Positions 3,107-17,947 of a stretch of 28,122 bases of DNA are shown piece after piece. Below the pieces are notes generated by a model, which saw nothing but the letters and a program-made list of their open reading frames with translations, made no database searches and was not told where the DNA came from. The DNA lies in the NCBI GenBank assembly GCA_038748465.1, contig JBCDJA010000001.1:1-28122 (forward strand). Reading direction: 5' to 3'. The number at the start of each line of letters is the position of its first letter. The stretch's first letter is position 1. A program made the translations under genes and the position numbers. This DNA is from Pseudomonadota bacterium. Lineage in GTDB: Bacteria > Pseudomonadota > Alphaproteobacteria > M2410.

Positions 3107-4405
3107 GTGCGTGCCCATGTCCGAAGCCGGACGGTTTTCCGCCGCGCCCTGGCGGCGTCCGCTCTTAGTGTGGCGGTGTTGTCCCTTTCTGTTGTGCCGG
3201 GTGGCTTGGCCCAGGCCGGCCCGTCGTTCGTTCCGCATCCTGCCCAATCTGGCCACGCGGGATCTTCGTCGCAGGCCCAATGTGTGGGGCCGGCAGCTCG
3301 GTGGACACGCCTTGCCGATCGGACCCGGACGGTCACCGTACGCCTGTGGCAGGCCGCGCGGGACTGCCTGACCAATCCCTGTCCTGGGATCGATTGCGCG
3401 CGCCTGCCAGGACTTGCCGCCGATGCGGAGCGTCTTGCCGACGCGCTCGACCTTACCCTCGCGCAAGTCACCCGGCCGCGGCGAAGCGATGCCTCGGCGG
3501 TTGAGCCGGGCGTTTCCGCGGCATGTTATCCGAGCGAGGTGGAGGCGGCCCGTCTTGTCTATGACCTAATGTCGGCCCGGCGTGCCCTTAGCGCCTGTGC
3601 CAAGCGGTCTGCATGCGCGGGGGTCATTTCCCATCCAGGGGGTCCACAGCCAGCCCAGGGGGCCGCGCCGGAGGTGCTCCTTGATGCATTGGAAACCGTG
3701 ACGGCTCGCCTTCCAACGATGCCGATCGACAAATTCCGTCTCTCGCTCATCGGCACCGATAGGCCCCTCGCCGCCGGCATGCCCCTAGGGTTGGCGATTT
3801 CCGGAAAGCCTGCGTGCTTTAAACCGGACGGCTTGATGGTGTCGGTTGTGCCGCCCCATGCCGCACCGGGACTTGCGCCAAACCCGGTCGGGATCGAGGC
3901 GGCTCTGGCGCTCGATGTGCCCGACCGCCTGCAACACCTAATCGCAGAGCCTCAGCCTCAGGGCGAGAGCGGCGTGCTGGCCGTGCTTCCGGTCGAAGCG
4001 CCCTTGCGCCCTGGGGCTTATCAGGTGGCGTTGCTTCGCCCCTCGGGACAAGAGCTGCAAGAGGTGGGGCGCAGCGAGACCTTTGTGGTGGGTGAGGCGA
4101 GCGCGCCATGCGTTGGTTTTTCAGGCATTTGGGAGACGAGCTTCGGCCGGATGCACCTTGCGGAGGGCGAGGAGGGTGAGGTGAGGGGCACCTACCGCCG
4201 CGCGCCCTTAGGCCAAAGCGGCTTCTTTGCGGGCAAACGCAGGGACCGGGTGCTCTATGGCCAATGGGCGTCGGAGTTTGGAAGCGGTGGATTGCGCCTT
4301 GTGCTGAACGAGAGCGACAGCGCGTTTACGGGGACCTGGAGCCGATTTCGCGAGGAATTTGCCGGGGAGGGGGCTTGGACCGGCGCCTGCGCCAGCGGTC
4401 CCTAG
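3107..4405 (+). CDS. Hypothetical secreted Cys-rich protein with a C-terminal avidin-like beta-barrel candidate domain
   Basis: 432-aa ORF with a GTG start after GGAGGA. It has a signal-peptide-like N-terminus (VFRRALAASALSVAVLSLSVVPGGLAQA), 10 Cys, and the C-terminal pattern FSGIWETSFG...GEVRGTY...LYGQW...FTGTW...WTG. Confidence 0.7.
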   Translation: MRAHVRSRTVFRRALAASALSVAVLSLSVVPGGLAQAGPSFVPHPAQSGHAGSSSQAQCVGPAARWTRLADRTRTVTVRLWQAARDCLTNPCPGIDCARLPGLAADAERLADALDLTLAQVTRPRRSDASAVEPGVSAACYPSEVEAARLVYDLMSARRALSACAKRSACAGVISHPGGPQPAQGAAPEVLLDALETVTARLPTMPIDKFRLSLIGTDRPLAAGMPLGLAISGKPACFKPDGLMVSVVPPHAAPGLAPNPVGIEAALALDVPDRLQHLIAEPQPQGESGVLAVLPVEAPLRPGAYQVALLRPSGQELQEVGRSETFVVGEASAPCVGFSGIWETSFGRMHLAEGEEGEVRGTYRRAPLGQSGFFAGKRRDRVLYGQWASEFGSGGLRLVLNESDSAFTGTWSRFREEFAGEGAWTGACASGP

Positions 4406-7336: not shown

Positions 7337-8644
7337 TTAGGTGGGGCTGCCGACCTGCACAAGGTAGGTCCAACAATCGGCGACCTCCTTAAAGCCGTGG
7401 CGTCCGGTGCAAAAGGCTTCTTCCGAGAGGTTGCGGGAGGCCGCGATGCATTGGGCCAAGTTCAGTTGAGCGAACTTCAGGCACTGACGGTCCGTTTCGT
7501 TCTTTGTGAGCTTCATCGCGTCTTTCAGGTCATTGGGGCCGGCCCCGGGCACACTGAGATAAGCCGCCAGGCTAATGATCCGGCCGTAGGTCGGACGCGA
7601 AATGGGGCTCACCTTTGAGATATCCATGGCAAGGGTTTGTTCGCCTGCGGAATTGATCAGGGTCATCGGGCGGGACGGCGCGATCGTGGGGTTTAGCAGT
7701 AAGGCCAGATCCGTCGCCAGGTCTTGGGCGTGATCTTGGGCGTGATCCGCGTCAGGGTCGCTCTGGGCCTTTTTCCGCTGCATGTTGATGGCCCTTTCGC
7801 GAAAGCGCTGGGCCGTCGTGACGAGAAGCGTGTTTTCTGCAGCGGTTTGTTGGATGGCGCGCTCAACAGCCGCCGGGGCGGTGCGCCAAGACAGCGTCGA
7901 ATAAGGTTTCGCCTTCAGTTCGGCAAAGAACGCAGCCCGCCCCATGCTGGCCGCCTTCGCCCTCGCTTCTTCAACGAAGGCTTCATCTTCCATCACTTCG
8001 ACCGCGTGGGCGACGACCCAGCCCTGAGAGACGATCGAATAATCGTATTTTGACAAGCGCTGGTGGGCGGCGCGGATCTCGGTCCGGCTGCGCAGCTTGT
8101 AATTTGAGACGCGGGTTACATCGCGCCAGTAATCGTTAAACACACCAAGAACGTAATGGGGTGAGGCGGTGCTCAACACAAGGGCGTTTTCGGGTTTGCG
8201 CAAGGGGGTGGGGATGCGGCTTGCCGTGGGATCGGCCAGCGCTGTGGGCGCAAAGCCATAGGCGGGCACGGGGTTCGGAGCCGTTTCAGCCGGGGCGGGG
8301 GACGGGCCGTCGGCATTTGCCAAGACGATCTCCGCTTCGATGGGCTTGCGTCGCGGCACTTTATTGCTGCCCGTCAGTTCCATCAGGGTCGGCCGGGAGA
8401 TGACGGGCGGGGTCGCCGCGACCGGCTGTTGTGCCGTCGGCGAGAGCGTTCCAAAATCTGTCATGGTGTTACAGGCACTGAGGGCCAGCAGGGACAGACC
8501 GAGGGCCCCGGCTATGCCGGCCTGGCGGGCCGACCTGGCGCTTGCGGCAATGCGGATGGGCGCGGCAACGCGGATGGGCGCGGCGAAAGCTGCGGTCCAG
8601 GAACTCAGTTGATCTTTCATCTGATTATACCCGCCTGTTTGCAT
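7337..8644 (-). CDS. Hypothetical lipoprotein with a C-terminal 4-Cys motif
   Basis: Long ORF with lipobox LLALSA-C and C-terminal RQCLKFAQLNLAQCIAAS...EEAFCTGRHGFKEVADC. The start is uncertain (8665, 8644 or 8620); 8644 has GGGAG 4-5 nt upstream. Confidence 0.75.
   Translation of the reverse strand: MQTGGYNQMKDQLSSWTAAFAAPIRVAAPIRIAASARSARQAGIAGALGLSLLALSACNTMTDFGTLSPTAQQPVAATPPVISRPTLMELTGSNKVPRRKPIEAEIVLANADGPSPAPAETAPNPVPAYGFAPTALADPTASRIPTPLRKPENALVLSTASPHYVLGVFNDYWRDVTRVSNYKLRSRTEIRAAHQRLSKYDYSIVSQGWVVAHAVEVMEDEAFVEEARAKAASMGRAAFFAELKAKPYSTLSWRTAPAAVERAIQQTAAENTLLVTTAQRFRERAINMQRKKAQSDPDADHAQDHAQDLATDLALLLNPTIAPSRPMTLINSAGEQTLAMDISKVSPISRPTYGRIISLAAYLSVPGAGPNDLKDAMKLTKNETDRQCLKFAQLNLAQCIAASRNLSEEAFCTGRHGFKEVADCWTYLVQVGSPT
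7722..7747. repeat. 12-bp tandem duplication (tcttgggcgtga x2), encoding DHAQDHAQD
   Basis: Exact direct repeat read from the sequence. Confidence 0.8.
8544..8584. repeat. 18-bp tandem duplication encoding AAPIRV-AAPIRI in the lipoprotein signal region
   Basis: gcggcaatgcggatgggc / gcggcaacgcggatgggc / gcggc. Confidence 0.8.
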
Positions 8645-9098
8645 TGTGCTCCCCGTCCTCCCCATGTTGCACGAGCTTGCCCATCAGCTGGCCTGGCCGA
8701 TGGGCCGGCGTCGTCCAACCCTTTGACCAAAGCCGTGCCTCGAACTGTGCCCCAACCTGTGACCAAATCCCTCGCGCGCCTCTGCCTTAATGGCCTTTCC
8801 GTAACCGTGCCCTAGACGCGGCGCCGCCTCGGTACCGATCGGACCATGGCAGGATTACCAGTTTGCAAAATCAGCTGGAGAAGAATGACTGGGAACCGTG
8901 ACGGGTTTTGGGCCGGCGGCGATGACGTGGGTGGAACGGTAGCTGAAAGGAGGGGGGCACGCCATCCCTCAATCCAGGCCCTGGCCTCAACCGAAGCCGC
9001 GACGGGTGGCCGGCATTAGGGATCGAGCGCAAAACCGCCGGCGAGCAGAAATGCGCGCGTTACGCTGGGGAAAAGGCGTTATTTGGGGGAGCAAGCCG

Positions 9099-11750
9099 TT
9101 ATTCAGGGAAGAACGTCGTGAGATCCTGGGCGAACACGCCGTCCCGCCCCTGGAACGCATAGCGCAGATGGGCAAGCGCCGCGAATTCCTGGAATTCCTC
9201 GACATCGAGGTAATACCCGCCTGCCTCAAAAATCATCTGATCACCAATGAGCCACGCGCCCTGGATTGAGGCCGACAGCCCCACACCATCACTGTCGCTG
9301 CCCTCATAGAAATCGCCATTCGGAGTGAGGGGCAGGATGGGGGCATCATCGGTTTCCACATCTTGATAGCCGACATTGACCGAACCTCTTGCCAGCCAAT
9401 TAAGGCCCTGATCGGTCATGAAATACATGCCGAGCCCGAGGCGCTTATAGTCCTGAGGGCTGAAATAGCCGCCATGCCCGAGCGTGAACTCAGACAAGTT
9501 CTCGTCATAGCTCAGGTAACGAAAATCCGGCCCCAGAGCAAAATAATCAAAGCCGGGTACCCGAAAATCATGGGTCAGGCCGGCGCGGACATCGACAAGG
9601 CCGTTATCGTCGACATCATCGCCATCGCGCTGGGCGGCTGTGAGCGCAAAATTGGCTCGCCACCGGGGCGAGATTTGCGTGAAGCCAGAGAGCTTGACAC
9701 CCGATTCAACGACGCCCCCAAAGGCCTCATCCGTAGCAGGATCAACCGAGCCGGAGAACGAGAGGATCGAATCATCGACCGCGCGCCGGTACACCTTGCC
9801 TGTAATGTCCCCGCGCGGCAGGGCGTAGGTCGCCGACACATGACCTGCAATGTCCGGGTCTACCTCCCCATTGATCGGTGTCGTGCCAAGCGAGGCGGCA
9901 AGGGTCACGACGTCCTGACGCTCCCAACTGAAGGTCACGTCGTAAACGGTGTCATCGGTGGTGAAGTCGACCAGGCGCGCAACGGGCGTCAACGCTGTTC
10001 CGAGGGGGATATTTTGATCTGGGGTTCCGTCGGCATCAAGAAGATGCAGTCTGATCTCCCCCTTGATGCGATGGCGATCGCGGCTGGTTTGGGCGCTTGC
10101 GCCCACTGTCGCTTGGGTTAGCCGGCTTGTTCCTTTTTCCCCATCGCGGTCGCGATAGCGAATGAAGGTGTCCAGATGCAGGGGGGCCAGCTGTTTGAGG
10201 CGCTGGTACTTGGTGGCGTCTTCGGCCACGGCGGCAAGTTCGCGTTGCCGGCTGCCGGCGAGATCGGCCGGGGACAGATCATAGACAAAAACTTCCGTAA
10301 CGCGTGCGGGTTCCGCACCGTCTTGCTCGATGAGGGCACCATCGCCATTGTCTAGCAATTGCTGCGGTCCTTGAGGGTCATCAGACAGCGTTGCAACCGT
10401 CACCGGCATGACCTGAGGCAGCTTTTGCGCCAAGGGGCCACCCAAGTCATCGGCCACGGGTTTCAAGGCGGGCAGGCTGTTATCGGCCTCGTAGGCGGCA
10501 ATTAAGCCGTCTGCCGCTCGCTCGTCTTGCCGGCTTGCATAAAGCGCCCCGAAGCGGCGCTGCGCATCCTTGGTGTCGCCGGCCTTAAGGGCCGTCCAGG
10601 CCGTGAGCAGACGTTGATCTCGGTTGAGCGTTCCCACGCTTTCCGCCCGGCGCAGATGCCCAAGGGCGGTCTTGAATTGGCCGGCCTCATAGGCGCGGGT
10701 GCCGAGGGTTAGGCGCAAATTGCGTTCAAAATCCTTGAAGCGTTTTTCCGAGCTGTTCTTTTGCTCCAGGAAGGAAAGCAAAGTCGTCGTTTGCCCAGTT
10801 CGAGCAAGCGTCAGACCGTAGCCATAATCGGCATCGCTTTTCAGCGTCGGATCGAGGTCCGGATCGAGGCGTGCCTCGCGAAAAAAGGCGAGGGATTCGT
10901 TATAGGCCTGTGCCCGATAAGCAAGCCAGCCGAGCGCAACGCGGTCATCGGCCGATGTTTCGATCTCAAGGCGCTCAAGCCCTGCCAGGGCAGTCTTGGA
11001 GCCCGTGTAAGATTGTCCGCCGAGGGAATGATCAAGCCAGGTGCGATAAAAAATCTCTGCGGCTGGTTGTGTCCCTTGATCGGTGGCGATGGTTTTGCCT
11101 GGCTTCAAATAGGCCTCCAGCGGCCCGCCGGTCTCGGTCACGAGGCTTGTAACGCTCGCATGGCGGCGGGCGGCAACACCGGAATAATACACCCCCTCGG
11201 CATAGGAGTCCTGTTGGCTATCGCGGTAGAGCGCCTCAAATAGGGGATAGGCTTCTGACGGGCGGTCGAGCTGCTGCAAGCTCCAGGCTTCAAGCAAGCT
11301 GATGACAGCCGGCCCCTCCCGAACCTCCGGGTTCGCCTCGATGAGGGCGAGGACATTGGCATAGTCGCGGTTCTGATAGGCAAGAAAGATCCCGCGGTCG
11401 ATCCGTGCCCGCCGTGCCTTCTCAAGGCCGCCGACCGGTGGTTGATCGGGGGCAAAGTCTTCAAGTTCTGCGAAGTTGAAATTTCCTGCGCCCGGTTTGG
11501 GGGCAATTTGGGGGTCTGCCTGCCGAGTGGCCTGCACATTTGCCTCGGCAAGGAGCGTATAGACCGTATTCGGATCGCCCACGGCAGGCCCTGTTTCGAA
11601 GGGCCGGTCTTGGGCCGATCCATCGATCAGGGATGGCGCGGCGGCCTCTGCTTGATTTATCAGTACACCGCCTGTCAGCGCATTGCCTGTCACGGTGCTG
11701 CCCGCAACAGCGCCCACCAGGACAGCTGTCTTTAGGAGAAGGGATCTCAT
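9099..11750 (-). CDS. bcsC: Cellulose synthase outer-membrane export protein BcsC-like (TPR region plus C-terminal beta-barrel)
   Basis: Signal-peptide-like N-terminus and TPR-like helices (ALGWLAYRAQAY, LLTAWTALKAGD). It carries the BcsC C-terminal signature EFTLGHGGYFSPQDY and lies directly downstream of bcsB. The start is 11750 (AGGA RBS) or 11771. Confidence 0.85.
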   Translation of the reverse strand: MRSLLLKTAVLVGAVAGSTVTGNALTGGVLINQAEAAAPSLIDGSAQDRPFETGPAVGDPNTVYTLLAEANVQATRQADPQIAPKPGAGNFNFAELEDFAPDQPPVGGLEKARRARIDRGIFLAYQNRDYANVLALIEANPEVREGPAVISLLEAWSLQQLDRPSEAYPLFEALYRDSQQDSYAEGVYYSGVAARRHASVTSLVTETGGPLEAYLKPGKTIATDQGTQPAAEIFYRTWLDHSLGGQSYTGSKTALAGLERLEIETSADDRVALGWLAYRAQAYNESLAFFREARLDPDLDPTLKSDADYGYGLTLARTGQTTTLLSFLEQKNSSEKRFKDFERNLRLTLGTRAYEAGQFKTALGHLRRAESVGTLNRDQRLLTAWTALKAGDTKDAQRRFGALYASRQDERAADGLIAAYEADNSLPALKPVADDLGGPLAQKLPQVMPVTVATLSDDPQGPQQLLDNGDGALIEQDGAEPARVTEVFVYDLSPADLAGSRQRELAAVAEDATKYQRLKQLAPLHLDTFIRYRDRDGEKGTSRLTQATVGASAQTSRDRHRIKGEIRLHLLDADGTPDQNIPLGTALTPVARLVDFTTDDTVYDVTFSWERQDVVTLAASLGTTPINGEVDPDIAGHVSATYALPRGDITGKVYRRAVDDSILSFSGSVDPATDEAFGGVVESGVKLSGFTQISPRWRANFALTAAQRDGDDVDDNGLVDVRAGLTHDFRVPGFDYFALGPDFRYLSYDENLSEFTLGHGGYFSPQDYKRLGLGMYFMTDQGLNWLARGSVNVGYQDVETDDAPILPLTPNGDFYEGSDSDGVGLSASIQGAWLIGDQMIFEAGGYYLDVEEFQEFAALAHLRYAFQGRDGVFAQDLTTFFPE

Positions 11751-11786
11751 GGTCGATCCTGTACGTCCCATAATCGCCGCTACCGA

Positions 11787-14159
11787 TTAGGCCTCGTCCT
11801 CATAGGCCGATGCCCGTGACGTGACCATGCGATGGATGACCCATGCGAGGAGAAGGACAACGGCAAGCGCGCCGAAAATCCACCAGAAGGGGGCGCGCGC
11901 CAAGTGATAGCGCAGGAACGACATGGGCTTGGCCGAGCCCATGTAATAAAGATCGCCGGCTTGCTGGGAGTAGACAAACTCCGAACCCGGACGCCATAGG
12001 TTAAGGTCCCCGGCGAGCTGTCCCCAGAGCGCCGGTTCCATGAGCTGTTGGATACCGGCAGACAGGGCAGCGGTCGTCTCAGCCGTTGCAACCGTCACGG
12101 TGCGTTCTTTGTTGCTAAAGGGCGAGCGGTAGGCCATCAACACAGCGTTACGGCCGAGGGAAGCCTCCTGCTCCATCGATAGGGAGGTTGTGGTGCCCTT
12201 GAAGTTTTTCTCGCGGCCCCGCGCATTGTCATAGGCTGCATTAAAATCAGACCACAGATCGGCAAAACGCGGCCCTGTCTCGCCCGTGTCGGCATAAGCA
12301 AGACGCAAGGTCTCGCCGCTTGCAATCGGCGCATCCTCAAGATAGCGCGGGTCGATCTCATCAAGGGTGCCGACGACGAGTAGATTGCGGCCGATGTCCT
12401 CGCCTTCCGGAGCATAGCGAACCGCCATGTCGGTCATAACCCGGCCATGGGTCTGGGCGAGTTTTGCGCTGAGGAGAAACGCTGCCGTGGCGGTCAATTT
12501 ATCGCGGCCGGCGACGACGAGCGTCGTCGCCTCGCCCTCTAGATCGCCGGTATACGGAAAGCCCGAGCGACGGAAAATATCAAGATCCGGCTGATGCACA
12601 TAGCTTTCGGCCGGCGGGAAGGTGAGCTCGGATCGATCGAGGATCGTGACCATCAGGTTGCCGTCCTGGAAGGGCAAGCACTCCCCGGCGGCATTCGACA
12701 GCATGACCGGCGCAAAGGTGAGGGTGTTGGGCCCCGGTGTTAGCAGGCGCGCTGGCAGAAAAAGTTGGTAATCGCGCAGGCTGGCGCCTTCAGGGTCATT
12801 GAGCGGAATGGCTTTCTGGAAGCGCCCATTGAGCACAATGTTAAGGACCGAATCCTCACGGAAGCCAGCACCGTAGGTGAAGTCGAGATCCACCTCTAAA
12901 CTGTCTGACTCCTTGACATAAAAGTCCGACGGCACATCAAAAAAGACCGTCTTGGCCTCGGGCCCGGCAAAGCTCAACGTGTCGCTCGCCGCGCCAAGAT
13001 CGAGGAAGGAATAGGTCGTGTCCGGCATAATGGGCGCAAGCCGGTTTCCAGCGGTCTCGGCCGGCGGCGTGATGCCCGTGACGACCATTTGCGGCGCGTC
13101 GACATAGGGGAAATTGTAATGGGTGAAGGAGCGGACGGCCTGGCTCACTTCCTCAGGGGTGACACCTGAAATCACGAGGGCAAATTGCCCAGGCGCCTGA
13201 TCCAAGGCGTAGACCCCGACAAAGGGACCGGTGATCGCCGAGCGCACATCGGCCGGCAAAAACGGGCTGATTTCAGACCGCGGACCATAGAGGACCACAT
13301 TCCGATCGCTTGCCGCAGCAAGGTTGAAAGCCGGTGTTGCAAGCGGCGACGCCGTTCCATCGGCGTTCGGGGCAGCGGCCCGGGCCGGGAAGGGCTCGGC
13401 CGTGAGCGAGCGCAATTTCGGCACCACCTAATCGAGGCGCACCGCTAAGGCCTGGGCGATTTCATTGCCCCATTGCAGATGCTGCTCGGCCAATTCGTTC
13501 ACGCCGACCGTTAGGTCATAGGCGAGGGAGTTCCCAAAGCCCGGGCCCATCAGGTCGTTTAGCTCGGATAAGAGGAGGTTCTCGGTGTCGAGAGTGCCGG
13601 CAAAGATAAGGCGCGAGCGGACGGTATTGATTTCTGTCCAAAGCTCCGGGGCTGTCGGGTCTTCGCATTGCAGGGTGTAGTGCTGCGCCACCTCGAAGGT
13701 GAGTTTGTTGTAACCCGCTTCAAAGGTGTCGACCGGCAATTGGATAGAAGCCAGTTTGGATGGGTTGTCCGCTTCGAGGGTCAGCTGGGCGACAATGGTG
13801 CCGTTGTTCCGAACGAGGAGCTGAGAGCGGCTCTCCAACAAGGAAATCGAGTTGGTAAAATCAAGCTCCAGAACAGCTCGGTCTAGCAACAGCCGCGGCG
13901 AGACCGCATAAGACAGCTCGGCCCGCGCGCTCGCATTGCGAAGCCGCATGGGCCCGGTTTCGGCGCGCAATTCGTTCAAAGGACGGATGAAGGTCGTTAC
14001 TTCCTGGCGCTCCCCCTGGGGTGAGGGGGCAAGAGGGCTAATCGGAACCGGAATGGCCTGATTGCCCGTTTGCGCGTCGGCAGAACTGACAAAGACAATA
14101 AGTGTCAGGATGATCGTGACGACCGAAAGAAAATAAGAAAGTGCGTCCTTGATTTGCAT
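11787..14159 (-). pseudogene. bcsB: Cellulose synthase co-polymerase BcsB, split by one in-frame TAG at 13428-13430
   Basis: ORFs 13428..14159 (signal peptide; QHYTLQCEDPTAPELWTEI) and 11787..13427 (LEVDLDFTYG, VLNIVLNGRF, C-terminal TM FWWIFGALAVVLLLAW) abut in the same frame. Joined they give about 790 codons. Confidence 0.85.
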
Positions 14160-14201
14160 CGCTTGACTGGCCTCTTCGCGCCCGGGCGTGTCCTCACCAT
14201 G

Positions 14202-14274
14202 GGTTAGGACGGATTAACCCTAATGCCTGTTTACCTGCGGATTTGGTAAACGCTTGGGGTTAATTTTTACTTAG
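14202..14274. promoter_or_regulatory. Cluster of candidate regulator sites upstream of bcsB
   Basis: GGTTAG-N6-TTAACC (14202-14219), GTTTACC-N9-GGTAAAC (14229-14251), and minus-strand CTAA-N7-TTAAC (14259-14274). Confidence 0.4.
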
Positions 14275-14326
14275 AGGGGCGCGAGGAATTGGCGGCTTTG
14301 GGGGCTCGCGGTGCAGGCGGCAAAGA

Positions 14327-14371
14327 CACGGTTTAGAGCGGCGCAGCTGAGAGCGGCACGGTTTAGAGCCG
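14327..14371. repeat. 15-bp imperfect tandem repeat x3 in the bcsA-bcsB intergenic region
   Basis: cacggtttagagcgg / cgcagctgagagcgg / cacggtttagagccg. Confidence 0.75.
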
Positions 14372-14421
14372 GACGGGCGATAAGAACGCAGGTGGTTGTG
14401 GCGCCCGTGCCTGCCGTGCCG

Positions 14422-16797
14422 TCAGTCTGTGACGCCGACCGAGGCCGGGTGCGGGCCCGAGGCAGGGTGGGGCCCGTCACCCCGATGGGCCCGGTCTGCT
14501 GAGCCGGCCCGCTTTTCTCGTTCCGCCCGATCGGTCTGGCGGGGGCCAAGCCCTAACAATCGATAGAGCCCGTCGCGAAGGGTGGCGGCCATAATACGCA
14601 CCAGCAACCACAGATGACCGAACGCACCCCGCACCCCTGACAAAATGAGAAAGCCCAAGGCATCCACAGCATCGTCCGTATCGGGTCTGTTGCGCCAGGT
14701 ATCATCGAGAAACGTGCTGTCCCCGTGCACAAGGCTCACGATTTCGTTCAAGGTCTTGAGATTGGGGGCGGCAAAGACGAGCCCCAATTCGTCAGGCTCC
14801 GGCCCACCGCGCGCCTCAAGTTTCTTGACCGACAGTGCAAACTGCCGATCGCCTGCGGCACTTGAGGTGACGAGCTGCGCCGTTTGGCGGCCGCCAAGAC
14901 CGATAATCTCATCAGGTGCATAGGGAATAAAGCACGCCCCACCAATCGACAGGTCGATCAATTCCCCATCGATGGTTCGATCGGCAAGGCTTAGGGAGGC
15001 CGGCAAGCTGGAAGGCAAGCGCGGGGTGGAGCGTAATTGGCGTCGCTCGAGCAAAATGCCCAGCACCGCAAGAAGCGCAAAGAGGTTCAGCGTGTTCCAG
15101 ACCATGGTGATGAGAATGACATCGCGCTCATCGGGAACCATCTGCCAGCGGATGAAACCACCCACGAAGCCTAAAAGAACAACGAAGAGCAAAATATAAA
15201 ACGGCAGGGCCATGGGCGAGATGAAATCGTTTTCCAAATGCTCTCGCTTAGGCGTCACTTTAAAGCTTGGCTTGTGGGGGTTTTTCAAGGTTGCAAGCAA
15301 GGGCCTGATTGCAAAGATCGATTGGGTAAGCTCATAGATCGCGCCGATAAAGGGCCATCGCACGTGATGAAACATGGCGTTGGCGAAGATCATAGAGGCT
15401 AAAAAGTGAGGCACGGTATAGGCCAAAAACTCCTCAGCACTCACATTATAGATGTGCCGACCAAAGAGGAGATAGGCAAGCGGCGCGATGAGAAACATGA
15501 TCCGCGCCAGCGGGAAGAACCAATAAAGGCAGCTGGAGAGATATCCCATCCGTTGGCCGAACCGAAGGCCTGGCCGAAACAGTGGGTTCTTGAGCAAAAA
15601 CAGCTGCACCATGCCCTGGGCCCAGCGGACCCGCTGGCCAATAAAGCCCGACAGGGTTTCCGGTGCCAACCCCGTGATCATCGGCCGATCGAGATAAACG
15701 CTCTTCCATTTATTGGCATGAAGATCGATGGAGGTTTCCGCATCCTCCGTGACGGTCAAAGTGCCAAAGCCGCCAACCTCCTCGATGGCCGTGCGACGTA
15801 AAAGCCCCGCAGATCCACAGAAAAAGGAAGCACTCCAATAATCGAGGCCACACTGAATTTGCCGGAAAAACATCTCGTTCTCGCTCGGCATAGAGCGAAA
15901 CATATCGAGGTTTTTTTCAACCGGATCGGGGTTCGCCATAAAGTGGGGCGTCTGCACCAACCCGATTTGCTCGTCTTTCTGGAAGTATCCGACCGTGCGC
16001 CACAAAATGTCGGCAGTTGGAATGTGGTCTGCATCAAGAATGAGGATCACATCGCCATTTGTTCGCTTGATCGCGGCATTGATATTGCCGGCTTTGGCGT
16101 GGCGATTATCCTCCCGCGTCATATAATGCGCGCCGAGCCGTCGGCACAGCCCCTTGAGGAGGGATGCGCGCTTGCTGGCCGCCTCGCGGGACGTGTCATC
16201 GCTTTGGCTTAGCTTGGCATCCGTACCGCCATCATCGAGCACATAAACGGCGACTTTGTTTTTGGGATAATCGACCTGGCACGCAGCCGAAACAGTAACT
16301 GCGACAAGCTCAATTGCTTCGTTATAGGTCGGAATAAAAATGTCCACCGTCGGCAGATTATCGAAGGCAGCCGGCGCCTCTTCCGGCGGGCGGCGGCGCG
16401 GTTTGACATTGACAAACACCGACAGCAAAAACAGCATGAAGCCGAACAGTTCAGCGCCATAAAGAAGGTACATCAAGACCGTGCTGATGGGGTCGGACAG
16501 CCCCAGTGTTTCGGTCGACCGCCAGATGAAGTATCGCAGGCTGATCAATGTCACGAGGGACAGGAACACAAGCTGGGCAAAGCGGCTGTCGCGCCAGATT
16601 GAGGCTATCGAAAGCCCGATATAGACCGACAAAACGATGACGACCTGGGTCATTAAATCGGTTGGGATCATCGCAAGCACGGTGACCATCGCGAGCAGAA
16701 TGACGAGGGCAAAGGCTGAGAAAAAATCGCCCCGGTCGCGCGCCGCTTTCGACCGCCGTTTGGGCTCTTGCTCAGGCAAGGTGAATTCGTGGGTCAT
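14422..16797 (-). CDS. bcsA: Cellulose synthase catalytic subunit BcsA (GT2 with C-terminal PilZ)
   Basis: Motifs VDIFIPTYNE, LDDGG, HAKAGNIN, DADH, QTPH, FFCGS, TED and QRVRWAQGM; PilZ motifs RQLRSTPR and DLSIGG; multiple TM segments. The start is 16797 or 16857. Confidence 0.95.
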   Translation of the reverse strand: MTHEFTLPEQEPKRRSKAARDRGDFFSAFALVILLAMVTVLAMIPTDLMTQVVIVLSVYIGLSIASIWRDSRFAQLVFLSLVTLISLRYFIWRSTETLGLSDPISTVLMYLLYGAELFGFMLFLLSVFVNVKPRRRPPEEAPAAFDNLPTVDIFIPTYNEAIELVAVTVSAACQVDYPKNKVAVYVLDDGGTDAKLSQSDDTSREAASKRASLLKGLCRRLGAHYMTREDNRHAKAGNINAAIKRTNGDVILILDADHIPTADILWRTVGYFQKDEQIGLVQTPHFMANPDPVEKNLDMFRSMPSENEMFFRQIQCGLDYWSASFFCGSAGLLRRTAIEEVGGFGTLTVTEDAETSIDLHANKWKSVYLDRPMITGLAPETLSGFIGQRVRWAQGMVQLFLLKNPLFRPGLRFGQRMGYLSSCLYWFFPLARIMFLIAPLAYLLFGRHIYNVSAEEFLAYTVPHFLASMIFANAMFHHVRWPFIGAIYELTQSIFAIRPLLATLKNPHKPSFKVTPKREHLENDFISPMALPFYILLFVVLLGFVGGFIRWQMVPDERDVILITMVWNTLNLFALLAVLGILLERRQLRSTPRLPSSLPASLSLADRTIDGELIDLSIGGACFIPYAPDEIIGLGGRQTAQLVTSSAAGDRQFALSVKKLEARGGPEPDELGLVFAAPNLKTLNEIVSLVHGDSTFLDDTWRNRPDTDDAVDALGFLILSGVRGAFGHLWLLVRIMAATLRDGLYRLLGLGPRQTDRAEREKRAGSADRAHRGDGPHPASGPHPASVGVTD

Positions 16798-16890
16798 GGC
16801 AGGGCTTTCTGCGCTCGGGGGGCGGTGGGTGGTGCGGCTCGCAAAGGGGTTATGCAAGGGCGTTTAGCGGATAATCGGCAAGGACGGGCG

Positions 16891-17226
16891 ATGCGATTAC
16901 GAACGGATTTTTGGGTCAAGGCATACGTCCGTACCGTGAATGGATCGGGTGCTTCGGCGTTTGTGCTGCAGCGGGGCGAGGCGGAGGCCGGCGCGGTGTA
17001 TGTGGTCGTCAACCGGCTTGACGGCACGGCGGCCCTGTATGCACCTGCTGCAACCGGCACGCTTGACCGGGCGTTTGTAAAGACCCACGCAGAGGCCTTT
17101 TTGCCGGAAGCCGAGGTGACGGCCCGGATCGCCAAGGAGGCGTCGATCGATCCGGACTTTTGGGTTATTGAGGTTGAAACCAAAGCGGGGACTGCCATTA
17201 ATCTTCCCCTTCTGAAGGCGGACTAA
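16891..17226 (+). CDS. DUF1491 family protein
   Basis: MRLRTDFWVKAYVR...RGEAEAGAVYV...DPDFWVIEVE is the pattern I recognise as DUF1491. ATG follows AAGGA. Confidence 0.85.
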   Translation: MRLRTDFWVKAYVRTVNGSGASAFVLQRGEAEAGAVYVVVNRLDGTAALYAPAATGTLDRAFVKTHAEAFLPEAEVTARIAKEASIDPDFWVIEVETKAGTAINLPLLKAD

Positions 17227-17740
17227 ATGCCGCCTCGCCGGGCGTTGCTGTGCCCCGTTTCAACAAAATTCGGTAGCCGCGCGGGGCGTGGTGCACCAAC
17301 AGCGAGTCGGCTTCGGGCGCCCCTGTCGCGGTCAAGTCACCGAGATGGTTATGCCTCTGGCCTGTCTCAGGTGCCCGGGCGATCAAGACAAACACCGCCG
17401 GATCGTCGGTTGCCTGAAGAGTGTGGAAGGTTTTGTTTGTAGCCAGGAGGACCGGAGCCCCGGTTGGGACCAAGGCTTGGGTCGCATCCGCGCGTTCTTG
17501 GCTTAAGGGGCCGAGGGGCGGATCGAAAATGACATAATCGGCGAGCTTGGCCCAATCGCCGGCCTGGGCCAGGCGGCGTGCCTCTTCAAAGAGGGTTGTC
17601 GGGGTTCTGAAAAACGCCTCGGTCACCGGCGTCCGGCCCAATGGCGCTGTATCGCTCGGGCTTGGCCGCGCCGCGATCACAGCCACTAAGCCTGCCAGGG
17701 CCAGTGTTCCGAGCACAAGTGTAAATCCAGATGACCGCAT
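17198..17740 (-). CDS. Hypothetical protein with an N-terminal membrane anchor or signal peptide
   Basis: Fills the gap between DUF1491 and the SLT gene and has the hydrophobic segment FTLVLGTLALAGLVAVIAA. The start is 17740 or 17779. Confidence 0.55.
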   Translation of the reverse strand: MRSSGFTLVLGTLALAGLVAVIAARPSPSDTAPLGRTPVTEAFFRTPTTLFEEARRLAQAGDWAKLADYVIFDPPLGPLSQERADATQALVPTGAPVLLATNKTFHTLQATDDPAVFVLIARAPETGQRHNHLGDLTATGAPEADSLLVHHAPRGYRILLKRGTATPGEAAFSPPSEGED

Positions 17741-17832
17741 GGCTGATCCGGTCTGAAAATCGGCGGCTTGGGCGCTCACGGCATGCCCCTTTCCAAGCGA
17801 GAAGGCAAGGCGAGGGGAGCCTAGGCCAAGCT

Positions 17833-17850
17833 GGTTAGGAAAAATTTACC
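17833..17850. promoter_or_regulatory. GGTTAG-N6-TTTACC imperfect palindrome in a divergent promoter region
   Basis: ggttag gaaaaa tttacc; same layout as the sites at 2403 and 14202. Confidence 0.3.
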
Positions 17851-17947
17851 GTAGCGGGAGGGATCACCGAAACCGCGTGCCCAATCGGCTGTGCCGTTCG
17901 CGCGGCTGGTCCATGCTTTGCTTAAGACTCGCGCAAAGGAGTGGTTT

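Follow-up and report, generated by a model that had tools for sequence, protein, structure and literature searches.

A premature TAG codon in bcsB of one metagenome-assembled marine alphaproteobacterial genome, at a position where conspecific sequences encode tyrosine

BcsB requires both a signal peptide and a C-terminal membrane anchor (PMC8892547). That source, with reference to Omadjela et al. 2013 and Morgan et al. 2013, assigns the export of domains D1-D4 to the signal peptide and has BcsA catalysis depend on the C-terminal amphipathic helix together with the anchor. Loss of cellulose production through small changes in bcs genes is well documented. E. coli K-12 is cellulose-negative through a TTG-to-TAG change in bcsQ and strain ATCC 8739 has a premature stop in bcsE, the other SNPs in the operon of these strains being synonymous or conservative (PMC5944007). 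A passage of the same source that cites Serra et al. suggests that the loss in E. coli may act partly via polarity. In Komagataeibacter, Cel- mutants include a bcsBI frameshift (K. medellinensis NBRC 3288), a TAT-to-TAA change in bcsA and a nonsense mutation in bcsC (PMC8855687, PMC13068021).

Here we describe a bcsB gene interrupted by a single in-frame TAG. It lies in a window of 28,122 nt (the whole stretch of DNA that was analysed), which is an entire contig of a metagenome-assembled genome (MAG). The assembly comprises 2.75 Mb spread over 480 contigs; its completeness is 85% and its contamination 3.4%. The public runs that match the window are marine metagenomes. A permuted tmRNA, together with the nearest named relative, an alphaproteobacterial MAG, places the genome in the Alphaproteobacteria. 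The genome also contains, at C150:6115-6208, a 94-nt ARAGORN call of the type 'tRNA-???' with a four-base anticodon (aagg), probably a false positive.

The locus resembles E. coli K-12 bcsQ and ATCC 8739 bcsE in carrying what appears as a strain-specific, single-nucleotide stop in an otherwise intact operon, with sister strains uninterrupted; unlike those cases, it affects the co-catalytic bcsB, belongs to an uncultured marine alphaproteobacterium and is known from one consensus sequence. It likewise recalls Komagataeibacter, where spontaneous loss-of-function alleles of the core cellulose synthase, bcsB included, segregate within populations. However, the Komagataeibacter mutants arose in agitated culture and were confirmed by phenotype and allele frequency, whereas the present evidence is one consensus base in one MAG. 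With the stop read through, the gene has the layout of canonical BcsB (Rhodobacter sphaeroides 4HG6/4P00; E. coli 9FMT and 7L2Z), with signal peptide, D1-D4 and C-terminal anchor, and its matches to the solved BcsB chains take in D1, D2-D3 and the anchor-bearing C-terminal portion. It differs from them in being only distantly related (E ~1e-22), in scoring below the NCBIfam equivalog cut-offs and in its setting in a minimal bcsABC cluster. The features are as follows, all on the minus strand.

9099..11771, minus strand: bcsC-like outer-membrane component, uninterrupted; PF05420 (BCSC_C), profile positions 2-336 of 336
11787-14159, minus strand: whole interrupted bcsB; both pieces match the BcsB Pfam model consecutively
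11787..13427, minus strand: bcsB 3' piece, 546 codons and the natural TAA; remaining periplasmic domains and C-terminal membrane anchor
13416..13418, minus strand: AAA (Lys) codon, private to the window, against CAA (Gln) in conspecific contig L012 and a contig of public run X1; 10 nt from the stop
13428..13430, minus strand: premature TAG at bcsB codon 244; TAT (Tyr) in L012 and the X1 contig
13431..14159, minus strand: bcsB 5' piece, 243 codons; signal peptide, D1 carbohydrate-binding domain and start of the flavodoxin-like D2
14422..16857, minus strand: bcsA, catalytic cellulose synthase, uninterrupted; TIGR03030 at 819 bits (cut-off 699 bits), GT2 and PilZ domains

The minus strand from 13439 to 13419 reads CGC CTC GAT TAG GTG GTG CCG, placing an in-frame TAG at 13430-13428. 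The two open reading frames, 13428..14159 (243 aa) and 11787..13427 (546 aa), share a frame with no gap between them and together amount to 789 residues plus the internal stop. A genome-wide count of same-frame abutting ORF pairs of at least 120 aa gave 899, mostly ordinary gene neighbours, and so does not gauge how many genes are broken. Against Pfam PF03170 (curated cut-off 21 bits), the first piece matches positions 7-135 with 100.7 bits (E 9e-29) and the second matches positions 201-604 of 606 with 159.9 bits (E 1e-46). Because these matches are consecutive, the pieces are one gene cut in two rather than a chance pair of ORFs. The translation of the first piece begins in the manner of a signal peptide, with a Lys, about 17 hydrophobic residues and then SSADA/Q. 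That of the second ends in the hydrophobic anchor APFWWIFGALAVVLLLAWVI, and its N-terminus is not hydrophobic, leaving it without a signal peptide of its own. An earlier note on this DNA, made from the letters alone, had proposed a single in-frame TAG splitting a BcsB of normal size, with the signal peptide on one piece and the anchor on the other, and the sequence, the ORFs with their translations and the consecutive PF03170 matches bear this out. All elements of BcsB are thus present in frame, but the TAG separates the signal peptide from the anchor, and the two are not encoded in one uninterrupted polypeptide. The first piece aligns to residues 55-185 of E. coli BcsB, and the stop falls in the region that aligns between E. 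coli residues 185 and 248, past D1 and, in the domain scheme of PMC8892547, in the first flavodoxin-like domain.

The neighbouring genes are uninterrupted, in agreement with the earlier description of an otherwise intact cellulose synthase cluster. bcsB is preceded by bcsA at a distance of 262 nt and followed by bcsC after 15 nt, all on the same strand, as in a bcs operon. The ratio of non-synonymous to synonymous change (pN/pS) is 0.044 for bcsA against L012 and 0.08 for bcsC against a second conspecific contig, L013. No bcsZ, bcsQ or bcsD was seen within the window and, by its gene content, the cluster is a minimal bcsABC. Two flanking minus-strand ORFs, 7337-8665 (442 aa) downstream of bcsC and 17198-17779 (193 aa) upstream of bcsA, gave no Pfam or NCBIfam match; both are also called as genes in conspecific contigs, at 193 aa in L012 and 427 aa in L013.

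The spacer between bcsA and bcsB (14160-14421) is unusually long at 262 nt and is present in L012 too. An Rfam scan of the window, this spacer included, returned no RNA family and nothing indicating a recoding element or riboswitch. Within the spacer, the patch 14315-14372 holds 8 differences in 58 nt at which contigs of runs X1, X2 and X3 and L012 agree against the window. A contig of run X5 shows 4 of the 8 differences, has the window letter at 2 and leaves the other 2 uncovered. The patch is divergence private to the window and possibly a small recombination tract. In addition, a contig of run X2 carries 18 extra nt (6 codons, in frame) after 14438, close to the C-terminal end of BcsA, a length polymorphism among strains.

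We aligned the residue at the stop with that in relatives. Five genomes of the same family have an uninterrupted bcsB at 40-43% identity, in which the column of the stop is an invariant Tyr within LRL[DEK]Y. Two relatives at ~50% identity, taken from a protein collection, share the Tyr, here within RFDY. Tyr was found in all 7 distant homologues aligned, with the motif [LV]R[LF]xY. A search of species-representative genomes with the intact conspecific protein returned only a 42%-identity relative.

Closer comparison came from the same species. The 90%-identity protein cluster contains two further NCBI proteins. One, P0062 (730 aa, cut only by the contig end), is uninterrupted and reads ...AVRLDYVVPQLRSL.... 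It is carried by L012 (GCA_039186645.1), which matches the window from 18393 to 11970 at 98.2% identity over 6424 nt without gaps and has TAT where the window has TAG, giving the translation ...AVRLDYVVPQL.... As far as this contig extends, L012 encodes the signal peptide-to-anchor arrangement in one polypeptide. L013 (GCA_039180265.1; 98.8% identity) starts at window position 13413, and the stop codon lies outside its coverage. Assembler contigs of 4 public runs were placed on window positions 9000-17900, and X1 alone covered the site of the stop. X1 is the best-matching run (0.79 of sampled words), and its 768-nt contig, at a word depth of 6.9, has A for C at plus-strand position 13428, yielding TAT, and G for T at 13418. 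Over those 768 nt it differs from the window at 7 positions, compared to ~22 for L012. X1 and L012 are therefore different haplotypes, and Tyr is carried by two distinct haplotypes of a population that contains at least 4.

The stop is a disabling change that falls on a conserved residue and is missing from L012, the X1 contig and the 7 homologues, as expected for a recent nonsense allele. The haplotype in this contig differs from them at the codon by a single third-position change, TAT (Tyr244) in the conspecifics against TAG. These comparisons confirm the earlier guess that the codon had been Tyr (TAY to TAG), and they agree with the LRLxY-like motif named at that time and with the alignment with close relatives that it had called for, in which Tyr occupies the position throughout.

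The X1 contig has 4 differences from the window within 11 nt (13259, 13261, 13263 and 13269), 3 of them absent from L012, a further micro-cluster of strain variation within bcsB. A contig of run X2 tracks the window as far as 13402, beyond which it runs into at least 30 unrelated letters. Searching the window's own genome with the loose ends of the placed contigs, that of X2 included, found no match. The breaks of X2 and L013 at 13402-13413, within 30 nt of the stop, could be a structural variant of some strains or only assembly-graph tangling where a site is polymorphic. JGI metagenome contigs were scanned for an exact pattern in which both variable sites were set to N; nothing matched, and this source gave no further haplotypes.

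Counting substitutions on either side of the stop bears on its age. Between the window and L012, the part of bcsB upstream of the stop has 16 synonymous differences and 1 non-synonymous difference (pN/pS 0.021), and the part from the stop onward has 27 synonymous and 2 non-synonymous differences, namely the stop itself and the K/Q change (pN/pS 0.025). Compared to L013, the downstream part has 19 synonymous differences and 1 non-synonymous difference (pN/pS 0.018). Besides the stop, the amino-acid changes in bcsB private to the window are Q2H and the Lys/Gln change. Across the 481 codons shared by the window, L012 and L013, all changes private to the window downstream of the stop (9/9) are third-position and synonymous, whereas under neutral decay ~70-75% of changes are expected to alter the amino acid; this is very unlikely for an old pseudogene, and no relaxation of selection after the stop was detected. 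The pattern indicates strong purifying selection on bcsB throughout essentially the whole private history of the window's lineage. Since the differences are nearly all synonymous on both sides, the stop is either very recent or not real. We note that a conspecific assembly and counts of synonymous and non-synonymous changes can date a stop codon without reads.

The earlier note had left three options, namely a recent loss-of-function allele, a sequencing or assembly error and a gene tuned by readthrough. The first two both stand; the third is disfavoured. Were the TAG decoded or tuned, by a suppressor tRNA, pyrrolysine or leaky termination, a reduced amount of full-length BcsB would be made, and the perfect preservation of the 546 downstream codons looks as if such a protein still were. 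A very young stop explains that preservation equally, and conspecific haplotypes simply carry Tyr. No tRNA with a CUA anticodon is among the 27 tRNAs that ARAGORN found, a number from a genome that is 85% complete, so that a suppressor could have been missed. The best PylS_Cterm match reached 24.9 bits where the cut-off is 178, which is level with the background in control genomes. TAG terminates 264 of 1336 (20%) long non-overlapping ORFs, and thus is not depleted genome-wide; the ORF ends at 4405, 20196 and 24416 are among its ordinary uses, as the earlier note had pointed out in arguing against genome-wide recoding. TAG-G, the context at the bcsB stop, is also the commonest TAG context (130/264). 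We consider decoding or tuning very unlikely. Still less credible, to the point of being nearly negligible, is that BcsB is naturally two genes in this lineage. The gene caller did produce two proteins from the contig (243 and 545 aa), and the T-to-G change happens to create AGGTG, with an in-frame TTG (13415-13413) following 9 nt downstream. Yet the split occurs in none of the 5 same-family genomes nor in L012, all that lies between the pieces is a single codon, Tyr in every other sequence, and the second piece would have no signal peptide for domains that are periplasmic (PMC8892547). A conserved natural split, which the earlier note had named as the finding that would overturn its account, is ruled out by L012 and the family alignment.

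The choice between a real allele and an assembly error is closer. We see about an even chance that the TAG is a real nonsense allele of one strain, either very young or at low frequency. Nonsense and frameshift alleles of bcs genes segregate in other bacteria (PMC5944007, PMC8855687, PMC13068021), which favours this reading. Private synonymous SNPs and the private 8-SNP patch in the bcsA-bcsB spacer mark the window as a haplotype of its own, in which private variants are expected. Alternatively, and with a considerable probability that falls short of even, the TAG is an artefact, either a base miscalled at low depth and carried into the consensus or a chimeric assembly path across a bubble between strains, and the organism's bcsB is intact with Tyr244. 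The stop occurs in this contig only, L012 and the X1 contig having TAT, and X1, which matches best among the runs, has TAT alone, with a word depth of ~7. A 61-nt query was built so that each of its 31-mers included the TAG allele at 13428; no public run was listed for these TAG-specific words, which, with 3 words sampled, is weak evidence. In this gene, with its pN/pS of 0.02 and no downstream decay, 10 nt separate two private non-synonymous differences, a clustering near the stop that a local read or assembly error would likewise produce; the Lys/Gln site, however, varies among homologues and may be an ordinary polymorphism. Contigs of two other assemblies break or diverge at 13402-13413, marking a difficult spot in the assembly graph, and at least 4 co-occurring haplotypes favour mosaic contigs. 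The genome is also low in depth and fragmented, with 480 contigs and a completeness of 85%. On the other side, short-read assemblers rarely put a substitution error into a consensus, and the other private differences of the window resemble true strain variation, being third-position and synonymous.

If the allele is real, translation would end early in D2, once the signal peptide and D1 have been made, yielding a 243-aa fragment that would lack the C-terminal amphipathic helix and membrane anchor needed by BcsA. Any product of a restart, for example from the TTG at 13415-13413, would be without a signal peptide, and its membrane topology would be wrong. Polarity from the 1.6 kb of message left untranslated may in addition lower the expression of bcsC, which starts 15 nt past the natural bcsB stop and so could be exposed to it. 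By analogy with the Cel- E. coli K-12 and Komagataeibacter mutants, cells with the TAG allele would be cellulose-negative. A bolder proposal, which we hold to be improbable, is that a real TAG allele is kept at appreciable frequency as a cellulose-negative free-living or 'cheater' morph beside cellulose-producing, particle-attached siblings.

The feature itself is ordinary, a stop in one assembly within a selected single-gene bcsB, with no new mechanism. In annotation, this bcsB should be flagged as interrupted or suspect instead of being entered as a pair of genes, and a lack of functional cellulose synthase should not be recorded for the species. If reads confirm the TAG, it would be one more natural, strain-level loss of cellulose by point mutation, here in a marine alphaproteobacterium. 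Should the two-morph proposal be true, marine metagenomes would reveal a lifestyle polymorphism in the form of one SNP.
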